Source: Oscillospiraceae bacterium (GTDB lineage Bacteria > Bacillota > Clostridia > Oscillospirales > UBA929). Taken from it: a stretch of 64,000 bases of DNA. Both the position numbers and the translations under genes were made by a program. Location: assembly GCA_009780275.1 (NCBI GenBank), contig WRAI01000004.1, positions 21,212-85,211 on the forward strand, written 5' to 3'. Positions 18,845-64,000 of this stretch are shown piece by piece. Under the pieces are notes generated by a model. It did no database searches. It saw nothing but the letters and a program-made list of their open reading frames with translations, and had not been told where the DNA came from. Position 1 is the stretch's first letter; each line of letters begins with the position of its first letter.

Positions 18845-19285
18845 ATGAGCGAGGCAAAGAAGATTTACATCGCGGACGATGAAACCAATATTCGGTTGGG
18901 CATCAAGACCTTTTTGGAGGGTGCGGGGTATGTTGTCGAGGATTTTGAAAATGGCGATTTGCTGTTGGCTGCCTTTTCTAAAAATCCTGCCGACTTAGTC
19001 ATTTTAGACATTATGATGCCGGGGTCAAACGGTTTTGTTGTTTGCAAAGCCTTGCGAAAAATCAGTTCGGTGCCGATTATTATGCTGACGGCACGGGATA
19101 GCGACTTGGATTACGCCACCGGCTTAGACTTGGGCAGTGATGATTACTTAACCAAGCCATTCAGTCCCATGGCACTCACCATGCGCATTAAGGCGATTTT
19201 TAGGCGTATGGAGTTTGCTAAGGAGATGTACGCCGAGCAGGTGGACACGATGCAAGAGGGCGGAGAAGCCAATGAGAGTGCATAA
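18845..19285 (+). CDS. single-domain response regulator (OmpR-type receiver without a DNA-binding domain)
   Basis: 146 aa. Receiver residues DDE (IADDE), phospho-Asp in VILDIMMP, T in MLTA, K in LTKPF. It ends about 25 aa after helix 5 and the kinase gene overlaps its 3' end, leaving no room for a winged helix. Confidence 0.85.
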   Translation: MSEAKKIYIADDETNIRLGIKTFLEGAGYVVEDFENGDLLLAAFSKNPADLVILDIMMPGSNGFVVCKALRKISSVPIIMLTARDSDLDYATGLDLGSDDYLTKPFSPMALTMRIKAIFRRMEFAKEMYAEQVDTMQEGGEANESA

Positions 19286-20342
19286 GGACAAAAAGAAAGC
19301 AAGGCTGCGTCAAAGAATTCTCGCGGCGTTTTCGCTGGTGCTGTTCTTTTCGCTGCTGGTGCTGGCGGTGGGATTCAATATCGCCATTCGGCTGCTTTCG
19401 GCCAGCGACAGCTATTATTACGCCGAGCAGGACACGACCGGCCGAGCGGGCATAACGCTGTTTGTGTTGGTCGGGATTATGTTTGTTGTGTCTGTGGTTG
19501 TCACTTACTTTTTATCCAACTCTATCACGCGCCCCATTGAAAGGTTGGGTAAGTTTGCGTTGGGGATAGGAAACGGCAATTTTGATACAAATGACTTCAC
19601 CTTTCGAGACATTGAGCTGGAAAACTTAAACGCTGCTTTGAATAAATCGGTGCGACAGTTGGGGGTATATGACAGTGCGCAAAAAGACTTTTTCCAAAAC
19701 GCCTCACATGAGTTGCGCACGCCGTTAATGTCCATCAAAGTTTACGCCGAAGGCATTATTTACGACCTGATGGACGCAAAGCAGGCGGGTGAGACCATTT
19801 TGGAGGAAACTGATAGATTGTCCGAGTTGGTTGCAAACTTGCTGTACATCGCTAAAATTGACAATGTTGATAGCATCGCAACGCTCTACGCTGCCGAGAA
19901 GGTTGACTTGAAAGAGGTCATTAAAACGTGCACTGCGCGGCAACAGGCTGTTGCCGATAAAAAGCAAATTGTTTTTAGCTTTGATTCTGATGATGACGCC
20001 ATTTTTTATATATGTTCCGCCGAGTTGATGGCGCGGGCTGTCGATAATCTTATCTCCAATGCAATCCGCTATGCCATGTCCACGATTACGCTTTCTTGCC
20101 GAAAGGAAGATAACAATATCGTTATCCGCATTGCAGATGATGGTAATGGCATAGAATCTGAAGTCCTGCCCCATGTTTTCGAGCGTTTTTATAAGGGTAT
20201 GGGCGGAAACACAGGCATTGGGTTGTCTATTGTCAAGTCAATCGCTGACCGCCACGACGGTTGGGTGACAGCGGAAAATGTAAATAATGGCGGTGCGGCT
20301 TTTACCATAACGTTGCCTGATGATACGACACAGAGGAGATAA
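19272..20342 (+). CDS. sensor histidine kinase (2 TM, HAMP, HisKA, HATPase_c)
   Basis: H-box FFQNASHELRTPL, N-box LISNAIRYA, G-boxes DDGNGI and GIGLSIV. ATG 19272 overlaps the receiver gene by 14 nt. Confidence 0.9.
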   Translation: MRVHKDKKKARLRQRILAAFSLVLFFSLLVLAVGFNIAIRLLSASDSYYYAEQDTTGRAGITLFVLVGIMFVVSVVVTYFLSNSITRPIERLGKFALGIGNGNFDTNDFTFRDIELENLNAALNKSVRQLGVYDSAQKDFFQNASHELRTPLMSIKVYAEGIIYDLMDAKQAGETILEETDRLSELVANLLYIAKIDNVDSIATLYAAEKVDLKEVIKTCTARQQAVADKKQIVFSFDSDDDAIFYICSAELMARAVDNLISNAIRYAMSTITLSCRKEDNNIVIRIADDGNGIESEVLPHVFERFYKGMGGNTGIGLSIVKSIADRHDGWVTAENVNNGGAAFTITLPDDTTQRR

Positions 20343-21017: not shown

Positions 21018-22055
21018 TTAGGCTGCCGACGCGTGATCTATGCAACACTTAGATTCGCCGGATTTTAGCATGTTGCTGATAAAGATGCCGTAGCCTTTTT
21101 GTGCGTCGTTGACGAACACGTGAGTAATCGCGCCGATGAGTTTACCGTTTTGTACAATCGGGCTGCCGCTCATGCCTTGTACGATACCGCCAGTTTTGGC
21201 AATCAGCTCAGGGTCGGTCACTTTGACAATCATATTGCGTGAATCGCGGTTGCCTAGCAGGCGTATGATTTCGATGTCGTATTGCCGCACTTGATCATCG
21301 GAAACTTGGCAGTATATTGTCGCCATGCCCGTGCTGATTTCGCTATCTTGCGCGATGGGCAGCGGTTTGTTTTTTGATGGTATAGCCGATGGTTTTGTCG
21401 TGCCGAAAATGCCGTTTTCGGTGTTGCTGTATAAATCGCCCATGTGGTCGTTGAGGTCAAAGCTACCGCGCAGTTCGCCCGGGTCGCCGGGCAGTCCGCG
21501 TTTGACATCAATGATGTCGGCGGGCGAAACCGTGCCGCTTTCGAGTGGGAGAAGCTGGCTCGTTTCGGGGTCATGAATGCCATGGCCCAGCGCGCCAAAC
21601 CGATTGCTTATGGGGTCAAAGTACGTTACCGTGCCAATGCCTGCTATGCGGTCGCGGATATACACGCCCAGCCTGTATTGTGTGTCGTTTTGCACTTTTG
21701 CAGGCGTTATCTTAATTGTAAGCGTCTTGCCGTCCCGAGTGACGCCTAATTTGATCGCACTGCCGTCGGCTTGTTGCACGGCGGCATGGAAGTCTTGTGT
21801 GCTTTCGACTTCGGTATCATTAACATGAGTAATCGTATCATTGACCTTTAAGCCGGCGTCTTGCGCGGGTGTACGTTCGCCGGCGTTGGTGGTAACGGCT
21901 GTCAAGCCGATGACCATCACGCCGTTGATGTGTGCCTGGATGCCGATGGCATTGCCCATGGGAATCAGCTCAGCCGGCAATGGCTGCGCCATGCCGATGC
22001 TGACGGTCACAACCATTGAAATTGCTAAGAGAAAAGAGATAGTTTTTTTTCGCAT
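21018..22055 (-). CDS. spoIVB: stage IV sporulation protein B (S55 signalling peptidase)
   Basis: PDZ-like region, then the S55 core ..FGALGHGI.. and ..GMSGSPIVQNGKLIGAITHVF.. ATG 22055 is preceded by GAGGTG and followed by a signal anchor; the track ORF extends to 22292. Confidence 0.9.
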   Translation of the reverse strand: MRKKTISFLLAISMVVTVSIGMAQPLPAELIPMGNAIGIQAHINGVMVIGLTAVTTNAGERTPAQDAGLKVNDTITHVNDTEVESTQDFHAAVQQADGSAIKLGVTRDGKTLTIKITPAKVQNDTQYRLGVYIRDRIAGIGTVTYFDPISNRFGALGHGIHDPETSQLLPLESGTVSPADIIDVKRGLPGDPGELRGSFDLNDHMGDLYSNTENGIFGTTKPSAIPSKNKPLPIAQDSEISTGMATIYCQVSDDQVRQYDIEIIRLLGNRDSRNMIVKVTDPELIAKTGGIVQGMSGSPIVQNGKLIGAITHVFVNDAQKGYGIFISNMLKSGESKCCIDHASAA

Positions 22056-57922: not shown

Positions 57923-58246
57923 ATGGACAATCAAAAACTAGAACAAGTCACCCGTTTGAAAGCATTGGCTGATCCCAATCGTTTGCAAATTCTCCGTGTG
58001 TTGGCGCGCAATGAAAACTGTGACTGCGATGAAAATTGTGCTTGTCACTTATTGGAGAATGCTAATGTGTCGCAGCCTACGCTATCGCATCATATGAAAA
58101 TTTTGTGTGATTGCGGCATTGTGCTGGGGTGCAAAGCGGGGAAGTGGATGCACTACCGGCTCAATCGTGACGTCATCAATGAACTGACGGCGTTCTTGGA
58201 TGGATTGTGGAATACAAACGAAGGCTGTTTATGCAAAAGGAGGTGA
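57923..58246 (+). CDS. ArsR/SmtB family metal-sensing transcriptional repressor
   Basis: 107 aa. ..LKALADPNRLQILRVL.. and recognition helix ..VSQPTLSHHMKIL.. Cys-rich: CDCDENCAC, CDC, C, CLC. Confidence 0.9.
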   Translation: MDNQKLEQVTRLKALADPNRLQILRVLARNENCDCDENCACHLLENANVSQPTLSHHMKILCDCGIVLGCKAGKWMHYRLNRDVINELTAFLDGLWNTNEGCLCKRR

Positions 58247-58251
58247 ATGTC

Positions 58252-58341
58252 ATGCTGAAAGAGAATAAATGTGATTGCCCGTGCGGTTGCGGTGAAGTTT
58301 GCAGATGCACACCTAACTGCGGTTGTGGTTGCAAGGGTTAA
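58252..58341 (+). CDS. unannotated 29-aa cysteine-rich peptide (metallothionein-like)
   Basis: AGGAGGTG (58238-58245), 6 nt, ATG 58252. Encodes MLKENKCDCPCGCGEVCRCTPNCGCGCKG, ends TAA 58339-58341, and is followed immediately by a strong terminator. Confidence 0.55.
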   Translation: MLKENKCDCPCGCGEVCRCTPNCGCGCKG

Positions 58342-58379: not shown

Positions 58380-58526
58380 ATCTTGTAGTTTATGAAAAGC
58401 AAAGCACTACATATCGTTTGAGCTAAAATACCGGTTGACGGAAATAGATAAGTATGATATTTTGAGGTATACCATTCTTTACTTATGTCATCCGGCGCGA
58501 AGCAAAAACAGAAGGGAGGGGAGAGA

Positions 58527-59408
58527 ATGGCAAGTCATTTTCGTCCGCCAAAGCCTCCGCCAAAAGGCCCATTAAAACCGACTGTTGCGCCTGGCGGCAG
58601 TATGCCTCCTGTCATGGCGCCGTTAGATGAAAGAACCTCTCATGACACTATTGATGATAAAAAGACGCTTGAAATGCTACCGGACACGCCTTTGCCATGC
58701 CCGCCGGAACCTGAAATAGCACATGCAAAAACCTCAGAGCAAGAAGAGCTGTCCTCCCTCTATGTTGCCATTGACTATCAAATGCTGAATGGTCGCATTA
58801 AAGGTGGTTTGATACAGATATTCCGGCGCTTTCTTTTTAAATCACGCATTTCCGGCATTCTTTTCTATGCGGTTTTGGCTCTTTTTCTTGTTGTTGTGGG
58901 CATTTTCAGCGGCGTTGGCGATGATTCCCCACGTTATTTCTTTGGGTTTTCTGCGTTGAGAGTCATCAGCGATAGTATGGACAGCGAAATTCCGATGAAC
59001 TCATTGATTATTATCCGCAGTGTTGACCCAGATGCAGTCCGCGTTGGCGATGATATTACATTTACCGATAGCCGCAACCGCACGATTACACATAGGGTCA
59101 TTGAAATTATCGAGGATTACGAGGGAATAGGAGAACGAGGCTTTCAAACGCAAGGTGTTGATAATATTCGCCCGGACAGAGAGATTGTCGTACCTGATAC
59201 CATTGCAGGGCGCGTGGTGTTTCACAATTTATTCCTTGGCAGGTTGTCAAGATTTATTTCTCAAAACGCGTTCCTCGTCAGTGTGTTCAGTATACTGTTT
59301 GTCGGGTTAATTGTGGCATTGAAGGTCTTTCTGTTGCCCGGCAGAGGGAAATTGCCGCAAACGCCTGGGCTTAATCTAAGCAATTCGTTTGCAAGCAAGG
59401 TCGAGTAG
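58527..59408 (+). CDS. SipW-type (S26B) signal peptidase I with a Pro-rich N-terminal extension
   Basis: Catalytic Ser in ISDSMDSEIP and His in ITHRVIEI; single TM. About 130 N-terminal residues are rich in P/K/E. ATG 58527 preceded by GGGAGGGGAG. Confidence 0.85.
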   Translation: MASHFRPPKPPPKGPLKPTVAPGGSMPPVMAPLDERTSHDTIDDKKTLEMLPDTPLPCPPEPEIAHAKTSEQEELSSLYVAIDYQMLNGRIKGGLIQIFRRFLFKSRISGILFYAVLALFLVVVGIFSGVGDDSPRYFFGFSALRVISDSMDSEIPMNSLIIIRSVDPDAVRVGDDITFTDSRNRTITHRVIEIIEDYEGIGERGFQTQGVDNIRPDREIVVPDTIAGRVVFHNLFLGRLSRFISQNAFLVSVFSILFVGLIVALKVFLLPGRGKLPQTPGLNLSNSFASKVE

Positions 59409-59455: not shown

Positions 59456-60223
59456 TCATATTTTTCGCGCGACAACAACCAACCTATAATCTGGTCGTGA
59501 GTTGATACAGGTTGAAAGTGTAATCAGTTTATCGCCATAGACCGCAGTAAGGCCTGTGTCATACAGGGAAAGCTCGATACAGCGGCGCAGAAAGTCGTCA
59601 AATTCAGCTTCGTCTGCGGCATTGACAAATTGGTGATATGGAAATTGAGTCGGGTTAGCGATAAAGATAAGGATGATTTCATACATGCCGAACCCGGCGC
59701 GTGTGTCGAAAGTAATCAGTGAATGCTCAGCAAAAAAGGATTGTTGTCTGTAATTCAGCAATTGGCCAAACATGCGGTCATTGCCCATGTTGTGCGCGAA
59801 AATGGTAATGTTGTCGCTGTGTGGATCGATGGAGGCGTGTTCGAAGATATAAGGTGTGCCGAATCGACAATCTTCACCCTCGAAATTGCGTCGCAAATAG
59901 AAATTCGGGCGATCAGGCGTGTGCATAACGGGATAGTTTATGTTTGTGCCGTCAATGGTAATCCACCCTATCATATCAGGGTTTTGCGTGAATAGCATGC
60001 CGTATTGGTCATATGTTGTCCATACGGGCGGTGGCGTGTCATTAGGCACTTGCGGCGGCAGCGATGGCGGTCGTTCGATTTGTGATGCCAGCGCGTTAAA
60101 TTGTGCGCGGACATCGCGCTGCTCGGAAAAGTAGCGCCAAAGTTGCACGCCTGAAACGACGAAGACGCCAGCCAGCAGAATGATGATAATTGTCCAAATA
60201 TATGAGCGCCGTCGGCGTGCCAT
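59456..60223 (-). CDS. srtB: class B sortase
   Basis: N-terminal anchor, ..GWITIDGTNINYPVM.., His in IFAHN, catalytic Cys in LITLSTC, Arg in YRLVVVARK. ATG 60223 preceded by GGAGGT at 7 nt. Confidence 0.88.
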   Translation of the reverse strand: MARRRRSYIWTIIIILLAGVFVVSGVQLWRYFSEQRDVRAQFNALASQIERPPSLPPQVPNDTPPPVWTTYDQYGMLFTQNPDMIGWITIDGTNINYPVMHTPDRPNFYLRRNFEGEDCRFGTPYIFEHASIDPHSDNITIFAHNMGNDRMFGQLLNYRQQSFFAEHSLITFDTRAGFGMYEIILIFIANPTQFPYHQFVNAADEAEFDDFLRRCIELSLYDTGLTAVYGDKLITLSTCINSRPDYRLVVVARKI

Positions 60224-60313
60224 TGCAGCTACCTCCATGGAATAAGTTGATACTTTTATTATACGGCATTATCACCAGAAAGGCAATAGTGGCGCAAATG
60301 TATGCTTTTTTGC

Positions 60314-61768
60314 TCAAAGCACGATTAAGTCCATGCCGGCTAATGCCGTCAACAGCACTTCTTGGCGATATTTTGAAATAATTTCTGACCGAGCTGCGCC
60401 GTCGAACGCAATGCTGATCATCTTGCCTGCACCGCTATGGCCGTATTGCCATTCCTCAATGCAGAAAGAGGCATTGCTCTCGGCGAGAAAAGCAAAAATC
60501 TCGGCATAGCCGTTGCCCGTGCCGTTGGTGCTATTGCCGTGCTGGCCCAGCTTTGCCAAGATATGGATGGGGAACTCGTGGGCATTGTCGATGATTTCAA
60601 ACCGAAATATGCCGCCTTTTTCAGAAAACGTGGCGACGATTTGTTTTGATGTTGCTTTGGTTTGGTCTAGTTCTTTAATAGCATTGCTGACTAAATTGTC
60701 GACAAGCGCGGTAAATTTCATTTTAGATGCCGCCAACGAGTGCCATGACGCTCGATTTTGAACAGCGAATAGAATATTTCTCTTGGCACAATCTCTTATC
60801 ATTTCTTCCAGCAAAGCTTGCAAGGGATACCACTCATCAGGCAGGGAGATCGCGTCTTTTGTATCGTCTATTGCGAGCTCTTGGCTCGTTTCATCGGCGA
60901 ACTGACGAATGGCGTCTAAGCGTTTTTCAATCACCCCGAGACGAAAGACTTTGTCTGACGAACGGTCGTTGCTTGTGCTGGCTTTTAAGTCGTCTAATTC
61001 TTCCAATAGGGCTTGATGGGAAATGCCGACAGCTGAAATAATGCCTCGATATTTGTGTTGCTCACTGGTCAGGTCGCCAAGCTGTCCATTTAGATTTTGA
61101 GCTTGGCGCTCTAAATCTTTGAACTGTGCGTCAAACGATATGCGTTCACGATGTTTTTTGATTAAATAAATAATCAAAATGGTTAAGGCAAGGATGACAA
61201 GACCGAGCGCAATCGCTGACGTGTAAAACAAAAGATGGTCTGCTTCATGTGCATAAGGTCCTGCGATAAGGTATCCGCCCCAAAATGTTACAATAATTCC
61301 GGCAAATGCAAAAACAATGCCCTTGAACTCCTTGTCGTGTATTGCCGGAATGCCATTTCTTAATTTAATAATTTTATATATGGCAGAATAAATTAATGTT
61401 TCGACACATATCACTAAAACAAAGAACGCGTCGGTATCGTAAAATTGAAAAATAGAGCCTAGTGCGGCGGATACGAACGCCGATGCCATCCATGCGCAGT
61501 GTCCAAACAAAAAAGCCAATATCAGTGCTGCCCAGTTTATGGAATGTTGTGTTATTCGAAAAAATAAGCCAAGACTGGCAACTCCTGCGACTGTCCTAAA
61601 TGGTTCGCCGACATATCCCAGTGATAAAAACATGATAACGGCAAAAAGAAAAGATGCCATCAAAATAGGGGTGGTCTTATTTGAGTGGGCATGAATGATT
61701 TTCTGATAAAATAATAAGATAATGATGCCGAGTAGTAGATTGCTCATGAATGTATGAACAAATAACAT
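60314..61768 (-). CDS. AgrC-like (HPK10-type, GHKL) membrane sensor histidine kinase
   Basis: About 6 N-terminal TM segments and a coiled linker. H-box-like EQHKYRGII, N-box LVDNLVSNAIKE, G-box STNGTGNGYAEI. Confidence 0.75.
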   Translation of the reverse strand: MLFVHTFMSNLLLGIIILLFYQKIIHAHSNKTTPILMASFLFAVIMFLSLGYVGEPFRTVAGVASLGLFFRITQHSINWAALILAFLFGHCAWMASAFVSAALGSIFQFYDTDAFFVLVICVETLIYSAIYKIIKLRNGIPAIHDKEFKGIVFAFAGIIVTFWGGYLIAGPYAHEADHLLFYTSAIALGLVILALTILIIYLIKKHRERISFDAQFKDLERQAQNLNGQLGDLTSEQHKYRGIISAVGISHQALLEELDDLKASTSNDRSSDKVFRLGVIEKRLDAIRQFADETSQELAIDDTKDAISLPDEWYPLQALLEEMIRDCAKRNILFAVQNRASWHSLAASKMKFTALVDNLVSNAIKELDQTKATSKQIVATFSEKGGIFRFEIIDNAHEFPIHILAKLGQHGNSTNGTGNGYAEIFAFLAESNASFCIEEWQYGHSGAGKMISIAFDGAARSEIISKYRQEVLLTALAGMDLIVL

Positions 61769-61793
61769 GATAACCCGCCTTTACCTTTTTGTC

Positions 61794-61802
61794 TATTATA
61801 AC
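61794..61802 (-). promoter_or_regulatory. extended -10 element upstream of the kinase gene
   Basis: Minus-strand TGtTATAAT about 26 nt upstream of ATG 61768. Confidence 0.45.
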
Positions 61803-61811
61803 ATGAAGCGA

Positions 61812-61862
61812 CAAAAAAGGGAACAGGGTGCCGTTTTACAGTCGAAAAACAGATCCTATTCC
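61812..61862 (-). terminator. terminator-like hairpin plus T6 after the mini-ORF
   Basis: Minus-strand GGGAATAGG ... CCTGTTCCC (9 bp including one G-U pair), followed by TTTTTT. Confidence 0.5.
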
Positions 61863-61878
61863 CTCTATTGCAGCAAAA

Positions 61879-61926
61879 ATTATCGATTAAAAACTATCCT
61901 GTTAAACGCTCGAATAAAACTAGCCA
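61879..61926 (-). CDS. 15-codon mini-ORF with a strong Shine-Dalgarno (candidate peptide or leader)
   Basis: AAAGGAGG, 7 nt, ATG 61926. Encodes MASFIRAFNRIVFNR and ends TAA 61881-61879. Confidence 0.25.
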
Positions 61927-62055
61927 TGCCGATGCCTCCTTTCGTCTTACATTTCAATTTTGGCATTGCGCCAACCAATTGAAGTATAAGGGCTTGAAGG
62001 CAAAAAACCTGTCAAAAAAATGAAGCGAAAATAAGCAAGTTTTGCAAGTTATCGA

Positions 62056-62089
62056 AAGAAAAAAGACACACATTTCAATGTGTGTCTTT
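62056..62089 (-). terminator. rho-independent terminator of the Spo0A-like regulator gene
   Basis: Minus-strand AAAAGACACACAT-tgaa-ATGTGTGTCTTTT followed by TTTCTTTC. Confidence 0.85.
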
Positions 62090-62105
62090 TGGTGTGATTA
62101 TGTTA

Positions 62106-62915
62106 TCAGAAAATCTTTTCTTTACGGATTTTATCGGCGGTGTAAAGGATGAATTCCTTACTGGTGGGAACACCCCGGCCAATATCAATATAAGGAGTGT
62201 AGACTTTGCTTAAATCCTCGGTGTCAGTTTTTTCAAAAGCGTTATACAACAAACGTCGAATGGCTTTTTCTACTGCCTGTGGCTGCTTGCAAAATTTAGC
62301 GGAGATAAGGACAATGATTTTGTTTATTTTGACAAGGTTCGATTTTGGGTATTGCAAGACGCGGTAAATGGCTTCTTCCAGATATTCTCTGGCGGGGTTG
62401 CCATGTGATATGTAATAACGGCTTAGTTCGCTGTCGATTCTGGCGCGAATAAGTGCTTCCGTTTCCAGTTCGCTGTACTTTTGTTGCGTGTACGGTTCTT
62501 TATTGCGATGGAAAAAGTTAGACATCAAGCGTAAGTGTTCCAACACGGCGTCGGGGCTGTATGAGTGATTGTGTTTTTTGATGATAAAATCGGCGAGTTC
62601 ATCCTTTGCCTTGGCGAGCGCCATGCTTTTGTCGCCAAAGTCTGTTACAACCAACAGATAAGGCTTGATTGCCAAATCACACTCCGTCTGGCGAATTTTG
62701 TTAAGCAGGCTCAGTCCATCGCCATCGGAAAGTTCTAAGTCAACAATCACTGCGTCGGGCAAACCGGTTTGAACAAGCTTGTATGCCTCATCGGCGCCGG
62801 TCGTTATCGATAATACAGAAAAATCATCGCTGCGGCTGATACACAATTGCAAGGGGCCGGAATAATTCACGTCATCCTCCACGATGAGAACCTTGTATCG
62901 CTTGTCATATCTCAT
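62106..62915 (-). CDS. response regulator with a Spo0A_C-like DNA-binding domain (Spo0A paralogue-like)
   Basis: Receiver: LIVEDD, phospho-Asp in VIVDLEL, LVVTDF, IIKK. The C-terminus ..[45 protein letters not shown] aligns by eye with Spo0A ..[43 protein letters not shown]. ATG 62915 preceded by GGAGGTG. Confidence 0.8.
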   Translation of the reverse strand: [269 protein letters not shown]

Positions 62916-62935
62916 GTCCACACCTCCGATAGTGC

Positions 62936-62964
62936 ATTCTATCATAGATAGATGCAATTTTCAA
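62936..62964 (-). promoter_or_regulatory. extended -10 sigma-A promoter of the Spo0A-like regulator
   Basis: Minus-strand TTGAAA (62964-62959), 17 nt, TGaTAGAAT (-10 hexamer at 62941-62936). Confidence 0.6.
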
Positions 62965-62967
62965 CCG

Positions 62968-62994
62968 TTGTCCAAAAAAGTACAATTTCGACAA
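62968..62994. promoter_or_regulatory. inverted repeat TTGTCCAA-N11-TTCGACAA containing a perfect 0A-box heptamer
   Basis: TTCGACA (62987-62993) is the reverse complement of TGTCGAA. TGTCCAA (62969-62975) differs from it at one position. The repeat sits between the two divergent -35 elements. Confidence 0.5.
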
Positions 62995-63016
62995 AATCAA
63001 AGAAATATGGTATACT
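62988..63016 (+). promoter_or_regulatory. extended -10 sigma-A promoter of the AbrB-fold gene
   Basis: TCGACA (62988-62993), 17 nt, TGgTATACT (63008-63016). Confidence 0.6.
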
Positions 63017-63029
63017 ATACAAAAAGGGG

Positions 63030-63617
63030 ATGACAGGCATGGATGTTATATTGACGACGAGTGTTTTTGAGCGCGAAGGATTTCTAACGATCCCGAAATC
63101 TATCAGCAAGGTATGGGAAATAAAATGTGGAGACCATCTGTATGCCAAGTTAAAAGATGGGAATGTCACCTTGCAAAGGGAAAATGGGAAAAACCTAGAA
63201 ACTGTGGCGGTTTTGCCAGGCTTCGATGTGCAAATTCCTGAGCATTTTGCTGACAGATTGGGTTTTCCGGTCTGCGGTGAAGTGCAGCTGAAATTAGAGA
63301 ATGATGTTCTGACTATTTATAAAACAAATGTCATCAGCATCTTTTCGCCGCAAGGAAACAGGGAAAGGTTGCGGCGAAAATTGGATGCCGAATTCGAAAT
63401 GCTATTCCAAAAAAGCAGAAGTGAGTTGCTTGAAGATATTTATACTTTGTTGCTTTTAACAGAGTTAAAAGACGAGACGGTAAAGGGACTGCTGGCATTA
63501 CCAAATGCATTGCAGCACATGCGACAGCGGATACGTGGGGACGATGAGTTTGAGGCATTTTTAGAAAAAAAAGTAAAAGAATTGACAGATGAACTGACAG
63601 ATGAATTCAGGCAATGA
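63030..63617 (+). CDS. protein with two tandem SpoVT/AbrB-like modules plus a helical C-terminal domain
   Basis: FLTIPKSISKVWEIKCGDHLYAKLKDGNVTLQRE and FDVQIPEHFADRLGFPVCGEVQLKLENDVLTIYK both fit the AbrB swapped-hairpin pattern (x-IP-x..G[DE]-x-hydrophobic alternation). Start is ATG 63030 or 63039. Confidence 0.6.
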   Translation: MTGMDVILTTSVFEREGFLTIPKSISKVWEIKCGDHLYAKLKDGNVTLQRENGKNLETVAVLPGFDVQIPEHFADRLGFPVCGEVQLKLENDVLTIYKTNVISIFSPQGNRERLRRKLDAEFEMLFQKSRSELLEDIYTLLLLTELKDETVKGLLALPNALQHMRQRIRGDDEFEAFLEKKVKELTDELTDEFRQ

Positions 63618-63735: not shown

Positions 63736-64000
63736 ATGGTGTTGCGGGATTTGGAAAATGAGAATTTGACAGCCATCAATGAAATGCTATGGGGCCTGGT
63801 GCACACGCATCATCGTTATTTTAATGAACTTGCAAGTTTGGCAGATGACAGCGATAATGTGAATGTTATCGCAAATTTGCTTCGAAATATTGGGCGGGAT
63901 GGAGCAAAGCGTAGCTTGACTGTGTCCGTGAGAAATGAAAGTGTTGATATTGCTTTGCGCCGGCATATGTTGGCGGCTGTAGCGCATCACGCTGTTATTC
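63736..64000 (+). CDS. hypothetical protein, N-terminal fragment (ORF open at right window edge)
   Basis: ATG 63736 (in-frame TTG at 63724) opens MVLRDLENENLTAINEMLWGLVHTHHRYFNELASLADD.. with no stop to nt 64000. It is missing from the ORF track because it is unterminated. Confidence 0.4.
   Translation, partial: MVLRDLENENLTAINEMLWGLVHTHHRYFNELASLADDSDNVNVIANLLRNIGRDGAKRSLTVSVRNESVDIALRRHMLAAVAHHAVI

Follow-up and report, generated by a model that had tools for sequence, protein, structure and literature searches.

The 64,000-nucleotide stretch analyzed here (the window), from contig WRAI01000004.1 of an Oscillospiraceae metagenome-assembled genome (MAG; NCBI naming), carries close to its right-hand end a compact locus that encodes a response regulator with a Spo0A_C effector domain, a polytopic sensor histidine kinase, an AbrB-like protein transcribed divergently from the regulator and an unannotated gene for a 15-residue peptide, which is lodged between the regulator and the kinase genes (Table 1). 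The open reading frames (ORFs) on which an earlier sequence-only reading of this DNA was built are all present in the ORF listing. Public annotation labels the kinase (FWE06_02440) and the AbrB-like protein (FWE06_02450) simply as 'hypothetical protein', and the single tag between these two is presumably the regulator. In the following, WIN denotes the window locus and L-numbers (e.g., L003, L007 and L089) denote homologous loci on other contigs, across which the conservation of gene neighborhoods was judged by tblastn together with gene tables. The locus had also been described as an AT-rich patch; the direction of this bias holds, but it is mild, with a guanine-cytosine fraction of 0.38-0.45 against about 0.45-0.57 nearby.

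The regulator combines an intact receiver (Response_reg, 48 bits in Pfam), whose E13, D14, D59, T91 and K114 do not vary among 19 homologues, with a C-terminal domain that had been likened by eye to the effector domain of Spo0A. Profile searches bear out this likeness: the domain matches Spo0A_C (PF08769) with 46.9 bits against a gathering cut-off of 25, and a profile of the 19 homologues retrieves the Spo0A effector domains 1FC3 (2.5e-12) and 1LQ1 (6.3e-12) from the PDB over 107 residues. TIGR02875, the NCBI equivalog model of Spo0A, aligns with the regulator from end to end, but with only 76.7 bits against a cut-off of 200 (66-95 bits for its homologues), and because this score is so far under the equivalog cut-off, we consider the regulator to be a paralogue and not the master regulator itself. 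The sequence-only reading had reached the same view from the missing canonical Spo0A helix HEIGVPAHIKGY, and other residues do stand there in the regulator. Its helix AVEKAIRR pairs with RVERAIRH of Spo0A, reportedly its DNA-recognition helix (1LQ1), and retains the E, A, I and R residues; the PTxxEF..ADK motif at the C-terminus is likewise retained. Overall identity to the Bacillus subtilis Spo0A is 26%, a figure that, like the helix alignment, uses a B. subtilis sequence entered by hand, of which the 1FC3 and 1LQ1 matches are independent. Gene order points the same way. The spoIVB gene reported at 21018..22055 is genuine (equivalog score 360.6 against 305) and its neighbors are genes for a YjbM-like (p)ppGpp synthetase and YfmF rather than spo0A; the regulator gene lies 41 kb away from it, adjoining its own kinase, and no canonical spo0A is found within the 64-kb window. 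Since the equivalog score, the signature helix and synteny all fail, the regulator is not Spo0A proper.

The 337-bp gap between the regulator and kinase genes contains, in this order, the regulator terminator, a promoter with an unusually long spacer, a Shine-Dalgarno (SD) sequence with the small gene, a hairpin with a U-run and an extended -10 element (Table 1). The SD of the small gene is strong (GAAAGGAGG, 7 nt upstream), and comparable small ORFs lie directly upstream of the kinase gene in at least 11 other distinct loci (12 with the window). They encode peptides of 15 residues in the window, L007 (MAAFIRLFNQVFLNR) and L092 (MNAIIRFFNWAFGSR), of 19 residues in L003 (MAGAWTRFISHFSRIFWNG), L090 (MGGFWATFASNFFRALRNL) and L095 (MSGFWMRFVSGFARLFGNM), of 18 residues in L167 (MGFWDRVMYAFSYVFAKG) and L169 (MGWLNTFITFFSRGLGNG) and of 14 residues in L005 (MTFIGIFSRWFAAW), L168 (MWFVIIFTRLFASV) and L091, which features two tandem copies (MWFVNIFTRIFRNM and MWFVNLWTRLFRNM); the peptide of L097 (MSWFWYWVDGTWKLM...) is cut by the contig end. 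All these peptides are 14-19 residues long and amphipathic, with a net charge of 0 to +3 (mostly cationic) and 3-6 aromatic residues. Within a peptide class, nucleotide identity is 0.50-0.69 in the coding sequence (CDS) of the small ORF against 0.15-0.38 in the flanks, the length and the stop codon are kept, and conserved residues are specified by differing synonymous codons. An ORF of 12-22 codons with an SD and an ATG is present on the sense strand of 7 of 8 independent gaps and on the antisense strand of none of the 8, where the chance expectation is 1-6% per gap, and an Rfam search over 61600-63200 returned just two sub-threshold chance matches and no family that could explain the peptide region. 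On the strength of these comparisons (higher identity in the CDS than in the flanks, fixed length and stop, synonymous changes, the sense-strand excess and the lack of an Rfam match), we regard the small gene as a real coding gene.

This gene tracks the kinase and not the regulator, being kept where the regulator gene is convergent (L168) or absent nearby (L167 and L169). The trio of kinase, regulator and AbrB-like protein recognized in the sequence-only reading, although conserved in its three members, understates the module, of which the peptide gene is the kinase's most conserved companion. Its position beside the kinase gene also lends independent support to the earlier guess that the kinase senses peptides, and its product is a candidate leaderless signaling peptide and kinase ligand. 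The putative activator-dependent promoter of the peptide gene has a 21-nt spacer, which exceeds what a consensus promoter scan accepts, and similar layouts are displayed by L090 (TTCGACC-N21-TATACT), L003 (TCTGACG-N19-TATAGG) and L095 (TCCGACA-N19-TATAGG); overlong spacers of this kind resemble those of Spo0A-activated promoters such as spoIIG. Equivalents of the hairpin and T-run follow the peptide gene in other loci, and ATGTTATAAT-type elements occupy the place of the likely kinase promoter in L003, L005, L009, L091, L167, L168 and L169. A reading of the small ORF as a leader peptide for attenuation was rejected, given that a terminator and a separate promoter precede the kinase gene and that conservation is at the amino-acid level.

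Two of the other loci show further peculiarities around the peptide gene. L091 (5701-5770) and L167 (5755-5810) have in common a block of ~55 nt (…AATCAGACG-AATCA-ATGTYGAAATCAGAC-CTTTATGAAAGGGGG) before the peptide region, and in L091 the small ORF expected after the SD of this shared block has seemingly been replaced, with two new tandem peptide genes located further downstream. In L168 (2592-5624), and in no other locus, an FtsX-FtsX-ABC ATPase set lies directly upstream of the peptide and kinase genes and could be an exporter for the peptide.

The kinase gene lies downstream on the same strand, and its product is, as the sequence-only reading had it, a polytopic GHKL kinase, with 6-7 transmembrane (TM) helices and no large external domain. 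In an alignment of 14 homologues, a near-invariant H238 (motif HKYR) follows directly on the last TM helix, and an N-box (GNLLSNAIKEL), a G1 box in degenerate form (DNAHEF) and a G2 box (NSTNGTGxGY) are recognizable. The generic GHKL model HATPase_c matches all 14 homologues (best E 4.6e-7), and the AgrC/ComD-type model PF14501 (HATPase_c_5) matches 11 of them more weakly (best 6.5e-5), with all matches to both models being sub-threshold; PF14501 does not match the window kinase itself, and HisKA models match none of the kinase homologues. An AlphaFold2 (AF2) model computed on the family alignment, with a predicted local distance difference test score (pLDDT) of 70, shows 6-7 TM helices, an extended hairpin of helices and an ATPase domain of the alpha/beta type, with helices at residues 2-25, 32-49, 57-74, 79-107, 113-133, 145-172 and from 178 onward. 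In Foldseek searches, the cytoplasmic part of this model retrieves HK853, KinB, DesK and ZraS at E about 1e-7, i.e., a generic DHp+CA fold, and there is no AgrC entry among the 50 matches listed. The kinase family profile, when run against PDB sequences, recovers no kinase at E up to 0.1 and no AgrC chain at E up to 1. The family motifs, the GHKL matches and the AF2 and Foldseek results together establish the protein as a genuine histidine kinase whose architecture is Agr/Com-like, without demonstrating the HPK10 class to which it had been assigned: that assignment is unproven, with no PF14501 match in the window protein, sub-threshold matches in its homologues and a generic fold. Moreover, the output domain of the partner regulator is Spo0A_C and not the LytTR domain that goes with AgrC/ComD kinases.

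The gene divergent from the regulator had been given a start at 62952, but the promoter lies inside the CDS so proposed, the ATG at 63039 has an AAAGGGG ribosome-binding site in front of it and the public call is of the same length as the shorter version, so we place the true start at 63039. The protein comprises two tandem modules, at about residues 1-47 and 55-95, and some 90 C-terminal residues that form a conserved helical domain with no family assignment. The AbrB-type nature that had been proposed for the modules stands at the level of the family, with 7 of nine members from related loci matching PF04014 at E up to 5 (best 1.8e-9) and the L089 homologue (36% identical) reaching 37.9 bits over two matched stretches against a cut-off of 24.7, whereas the window protein taken alone scores only 12.2 bits. 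The best profile matches in the PDB are weak: 2GLW, a single-chain swapped-hairpin barrel, is matched across both modules (E 0.3), while module 1 aligns with the AbrB-family structures 2L66 and 5ITJ, and module 2 with MazE. In WIN, L007, L089, L091, L099, L100 and L168, the gene stands divergent to that of the regulator, and more distant versions are found in L009 and L098. A toxin-antitoxin role for this AbrB/MazE-like gene was considered and set aside, as no conserved toxin partner adjoins it. Downstream of it begins a 155-aa gene (63736..64000, +) that continues past the edge of the window; its product has no Pfam or NCBIfam match, and the gene is not conserved in the other loci.

Between the two divergent genes, two promoters, both of the sigma-A type, are placed back-to-back. 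The heptamer TTCGACA, which we take to be the consensus Spo0A-binding (0A) box, overlaps the -35 element of the AbrB-like promoter in its exact form, and an inverted copy with one mismatch lies 11 nt from it, beside the -35 element of the regulator promoter. Exact boxes recur at nearly the same distance from the regulator start in WIN (-78), L089 (-76) and L099 (-79) and are also found upstream of the small ORF in L003, L007 and L167. In total, 5 of 17 loci have TGTCGAA in their regulatory DNA, a count reached in only 2 of 2000 shuffles, and tandem boxes with a 3-bp spacer (e.g., TTCGACAAAATCAGACA in L169) precede 3 of the 12 small ORFs (shuffle mean 0.18, with 0 of 1000 shuffles reaching 3); in several peptide promoters a 0A-like or -35-like heptamer stands 19-21 nt from the -10 element. 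Exact or tandem 0A boxes are restricted to a subset of the loci, and the idea of a universal binding motif was therefore dropped. For the suggestion that the Spo0A-AbrB logic of Bacillus is mirrored here, the exact box on the AbrB-like -35 element and the enrichment of boxes provide circumstantial support.

Table 1. Features of the locus, in window coordinates (+, forward strand; -, reverse strand)
Feature	Position	Strand	Basis
Sensor histidine kinase, 484 aa; 6-7 TM helices, DHp-like hairpin and GHKL ATPase	60314..61768	-	family alignment, hydropathy, AF2, Foldseek
Likely kinase promoter, extended -10 TGTTATAAT	61795..61803	-	sequence
Terminator after peptide gene, hairpin and U-run	61812..61866	-	RNA fold -31.9 kcal/mol, z = -4.67, 0/200 shuffles as stable
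Unannotated small gene, 15 codons and stop, 15-aa peptide MASFIRAFNRIVFNR	61880..61927	-	SD, cross-locus conservation
Putative activator-dependent peptide promoter TTTGACA-N21-TATACT	61983..62016	-	sequence; inference
Regulator intrinsic terminator, 13-bp stem, 4-nt loop and T-run	62061..62090	-	terminator scan, sequence
Regulator, 269 aa; receiver and Spo0A_C effector domain	62106..62915	-	Pfam, TIGR02875, PDB profile matches
Divergent control region	62916..63038	.	promoter scan, sequence
Regulator promoter TTGAAA-17-TAGAAT	62964..62936	-	promoter scan, 10/12 positions, TG extension
One-mismatch box TTGGACA	62975..62969	-	position relative to exact box and regulator -35
Exact 0A box TTCGACA (TGTCGAA on -)	62987..62993	+	sequence; overlaps -35 of AbrB-like promoter
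AbrB-like gene promoter TCGACA-17-TATACT	62988..63016	+	promoter scan, 10/12 positions, TG extension
AbrB-like gene, 192 aa; two tandem SpoVT/AbrB (MazE)-type modules and helical C-terminal domain	63039..63617	+	ORF, promoter/SD, PF04014 family matches

The association of these genes extends well beyond the window. The kinase gene follows the regulator gene in 7 distinct loci, which upholds the earlier notion of a dedicated kinase, and the kinases that are linked to the regulator in this way are 33-42% identical; the neighborhood of kinase, peptide gene and AbrB-like gene is conserved across homologues that are 33-49% identical. Several of the homologous cassettes are embedded in mobile contexts, with genes for relaxases, Rep_trans, serine recombinases, MmeI restriction-modification (R-M) systems, RHS toxins, phage tail proteins, a holin-like toxin and a transposase; the window locus has no nearby integrase, relaxase or phage gene. 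In L003, the divergent slot is held by a near-canonical Spo0A with PPHLKGYQYLRDAI at the position of the signature helix. This 250-aa protein, encoded in L003 (9069-9821, -), L004 (3848-4600) and L093, scores 179.9 against 200 on TIGR02875 and 95.6 bits on Spo0A_C, and the L003 copy sits on an apparent mobile element with relaxase, Rep_trans, serine recombinase, MmeI R-M and RHS toxin genes.

We propose that these four separately transcribed genes constitute a peptide-sensing two-component cassette with a Spo0A-type output, a reading that we hold with roughly even confidence. It builds on features that we regard as established, namely four transcription units, a peptide gene linked to that of the kinase, a regulator of the Spo0A type that can be phosphorylated, a partner with tandem AbrB-type modules and a 0A box on the promoter of the latter; secretion, the pairing of ligand and receptor, phosphotransfer, DNA binding and the sign of regulation are what we infer beyond these. 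The small gene would make a leaderless, aromatic and cationic peptide of 15 residues, which would be released and then sensed by the membrane domain of the adjoining 6-7-TM kinase. Conserved motifs and gene linkage suggest that the kinase autophosphorylates on H238 and that the phosphate is passed to D59 of the regulator, which in turn would bind 0A-like boxes (TGTCGAA) both between the divergent genes and ahead of the peptide gene. When seated over the -35 element of the AbrB-like promoter, the regulator would act as a repressor by occlusion, and at the peptide promoter with its overlong spacer it would act as an activator, resulting in autoinduction. In this scheme, the tandem-AbrB protein would serve as the downstream transcription factor, and its repression would mirror the Bacillus logic of Spo0A~P repressing abrB.

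Several observations sit uneasily with this proposal. The sensor is not hypervariable, mean identity being 0.44 in the TM part against 0.49 in the CA domain, and a pherotype comparison finds the kinases to cluster only loosely by peptide class. The peptides carry no signal or leader sequence, a gene for an exporter or processing enzyme of the AgrB or ComAB type is conserved in no locus according to the gene tables, and L009 is without a clear small ORF. On the DNA-binding side, the putative recognition helix differs across the regulator family, many loci are without 0A-like boxes, the boxes could equally be used by the host's own Spo0A and the box hypothesis was formed after the data had been seen. 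As for the AbrB-like protein, its single-sequence AF2 model is poor (pLDDT 50, with residues 1-100 predicted to be beta-rich), and in L098 the arrangement differs, with the AbrB-like gene placed downstream of a more distant regulator.

Some of these same facts would suit a peptide that stays with the cell, where it modulates the kinase at the membrane or from the cytoplasm, as do MgrB or SafA in the case of PhoQ and Sda in the case of KinA, and thus provides feedback on a system that senses something else. This alternative, which we consider unlikely although it deserves to be taken seriously, accommodates the lack in the module of a conserved signal peptide, leader, exporter or protease, the well-conserved sensor domain with no pherotype diversification and the tight linkage of the gene to the kinase instead of the regulator; an amphipathic peptide could also lie on the membrane surface. 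However, 14-19 residues are too few to span a membrane and fewer than the about 30-65 aa of the small-protein regulators of kinases, and a promoter and terminator of its own combined with 0A-like boxes make up a typical autoinduction layout. Likewise, the two diverged tandem copies in L091 are of a kind sometimes seen at pheromone loci. The peptides are, on the other hand, cationic, amphipathic and rich in aromatic residues, a composition typical of membrane-active peptides, and they could be leaderless antimicrobial or cytolytic effectors of the phenol-soluble modulin (PSM) or leaderless-bacteriocin kind, with the kinase and regulator either controlling their production or sensing them for immunity. 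Several loci are carried by mobile elements and have toxin genes as neighbors (e.g., RHS/YD repeats and one for a holin-like toxin), which fits this possibility, and the peptides that induce class II bacteriocin systems can be signal and weapon at once, which we also count in its favor. Still, we find it quite unlikely: conserved genes for immunity or transport are missing, the peptides fall short of the length of leaderless bacteriocins (30-50 aa) and PSMs (20-44 aa), and the strict adjacency of the peptide and kinase genes, even where there is no regulator nearby, is better explained by a ligand-receptor pair.

The mobile contexts raise another prospect, that of a device by which mobile elements let the regulator bind the host's 0A boxes and reprogram genes of sporulation or of the transition state in step with the density of carrier cells, comparable to Rap-Phr on mobile elements of Bacillus. 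The homologous cassettes beside relaxase, Rep_trans, serine recombinase, R-M, phage tail and transposase genes, the near-canonical Spo0A (179.9 bits) that lies divergent from the cassette on the element of L003, the identity of the boxes to the Spo0A consensus and the presence of sporulation genes such as that for SpoIVB in the host are all compatible with such a device. We nevertheless judge it improbable, as neither an integrase nor a relaxase nor a phage gene lies near the window locus and viral contigs, phage genomes and plasmids yielded no matches; besides, it extends the peptide-sensing cassette instead of excluding it. Finally, the regulator could be the organism's own divergent Spo0A with neighbors assembled by chance, considering that it is the sole Spo0A_C gene within the 64-kb window and that spo0A is not found beside spoIVB. 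We consider this exceedingly improbable, given the equivalog score of the regulator, its missing signature helix, a member of the same subfamily adjoining a near-canonical Spo0A in L003 and a neighborhood kept between strongly diverged homologues; moreover, canonical spo0A is not known to adjoin the gene of its kinase.

The proposed peptide-sensing cassette combines features of several known systems. Like Spo0A, its regulator has a receiver and a Spo0A_C domain that are collinear over the whole length, with exact 0A heptamers in the control regions of the regulator itself; unlike spo0A, its gene adjoins those of a dedicated kinase and a peptide, not spoIVB, and is often found on mobile elements. 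With agrBDCA, comCDE, blp, fsr and pln it shares a small peptide gene next to a polytopic kinase without a large external domain and a cognate regulator, and the box-containing promoters suggest autoinduction here too. It departs from these systems in that the peptide has just 14-19 residues and no leader, there is no partner of the AgrB, ComAB or protease type, the output is Spo0A_C instead of LytTR, the transcription units are separate and PF14501 is matched only below threshold. In this regard, the peptide is closer to the leaderless pheromones ComS and SHP than to AgrD or ComC. The SHP and ComS/XIP peptides of the Rgg/ComR systems are similarly very short, apparently unmodified, aromatic or hydrophobic, encoded by an unannotated small ORF next to the receptor gene and devoid of a Sec signal (see also the review PMC13361665). 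The difference lies in the receptor, which here is a membrane kinase and not a cytoplasmic Rgg/RRNPP protein, so that no Opp-type importer is implied, and in the mostly cationic nature of the peptides. The AbrB-like protein, for its part, has PF04014-type modules in common with AbrB, SpoVT and MazE, and its gene, whose promoter bears a 0A box, is divergent from that of a Spo0A-type regulator. AbrB has about 95 aa, and the 0A boxes of B. subtilis abrB are downstream of the promoter, not on the -35 element; the protein described here, which joins two tandem modules in one chain with a new helical C-terminal domain to reach 192 aa, is not an AbrB orthologue.

Taken further, these comparisons would point to a hitherto unrecognized class of cell-to-cell signaling in gut Clostridia, with the present module as its founding example, which brings together a leaderless aromatic peptide of 14-19 residues that needs no dedicated processing system for its release, a new family of polytopic kinases and a regulator with a Spo0A effector domain that reads 0A boxes, and by which a population or a mobile element taps or overrides the Spo0A/AbrB and sporulation network of the host; in that event, Spo0A_C would not be unique to Spo0A but would characterize a wide radiation of paralogous two-component systems. 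We put this forward tentatively, as possible rather than probable. The notion of tapping or overriding the host network stems from the use of the Spo0A DNA code and from the frequent carriage on mobile elements, in one case alongside a near-canonical Spo0A. If the regulator indeed reads 0A boxes, the cassette would open a way for population density or mobile elements to act on the sporulation and transition-state genes of Clostridia, whose inputs to Spo0A are as yet little understood. The peptide gene is in any case a testable candidate for a new peptide-signaling chemistry in anaerobic gut Firmicutes, in the shape of a ComS/SHP-like peptide, an Agr/Com-like membrane receptor and a Spo0A-like output. 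The literature that we searched contains no account of such a cassette or of such paralogues, consistent with the earlier impression that the module had not been described. Spo0A_C has been treated as a unique mark of the master regulator of sporulation (Davidson et al. 2018, PMC6136694); in the present loci, it belongs to a distinct two-component system that is conserved and has a kinase of its own. Surveys of spore-formers that count Spo0A_C matches could thus mislead, because non-canonical Spo0A_C paralogues exist.

The family is rare, with full-length relatives recovered only from a few related gut metagenome series. One of these, JGI 3300010369, derives from a gut compartment of higher termites (PMC7800795), and the remaining series are probably likewise from the termite gut; one kinase homologue comes from a Defluviitaleaceae MAG. 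In 185,579 species-representative genomes there were receiver-domain matches only and no full-length relative. With the effector domain by itself, a search of 1.84 billion representatives gave 165 clusters at E up to 1e-3 and 11 at 1e-10. When 20 of these matches were sampled (P0038-P0186) and scored on TIGR02875, one proved canonical (286.7 bits) and 17 scored 57-117 bits, and P0044 and P0048 had no NCBIfam match at E up to 1e-12. Since 17 of the 20 sampled matches score so low, there is, to judge from the sequences, a broad and uncharacterized radiation of paralogues that unite a receiver with Spo0A_C, so that the domain is not confined to Spo0A in metagenomic sequence space; the sample suggests that metagenomes contain over a hundred further clusters of non-canonical Spo0A-like proteins. 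Two distant paralogues, in L170 (1326-3227) and L171 (234-2238), are accompanied by a divergent gene with an XRE-type helix-turn-helix domain upstream and by a gene for a polytopic membrane protein downstream; the latter protein has in common with the kinase family an 'EP' motif after TM2, and the gaps of these two loci contain no evident small ORF.

 As the sequence-only reading had noted, a gene for a class-B-like sortase (59456..60238, -; TIGR03064 128 bits, under the cut-off of 153.75) follows the kinase gene. It is convergent with a gene (58485..59408, +) for a SipW/archaeal-type signal peptidase I (TIGR02228 77.7 bits), whose N-terminus is extended by ~120 aa that begin with a Pro-rich stretch. 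The pair is not conserved with the cassette: among the family loci, the sortase, the SipW-type peptidase and an ArsR gene are confined to the window contig, and on these grounds the sortase and SipW were discarded as parts of the module or peptide-processing enzymes. The ArsR/SmtB-type metalloregulator gene (57923..58246, +) is followed by an overlapping ORF (58207..58341, +) whose product is very Cys-rich in its C-terminal part (…KCDCPCGCGEVCRCTPNCGCGCKG) and could be a small metallothionein-like protein. At a greater distance, 18845..19285 (+) encodes a 146-aa receiver of the OmpR family without the winged-helix output domain, which either acts on its own or represents a regulator that has been truncated or frameshifted, and an overlapping histidine kinase gene (19215..20342, +) follows it.

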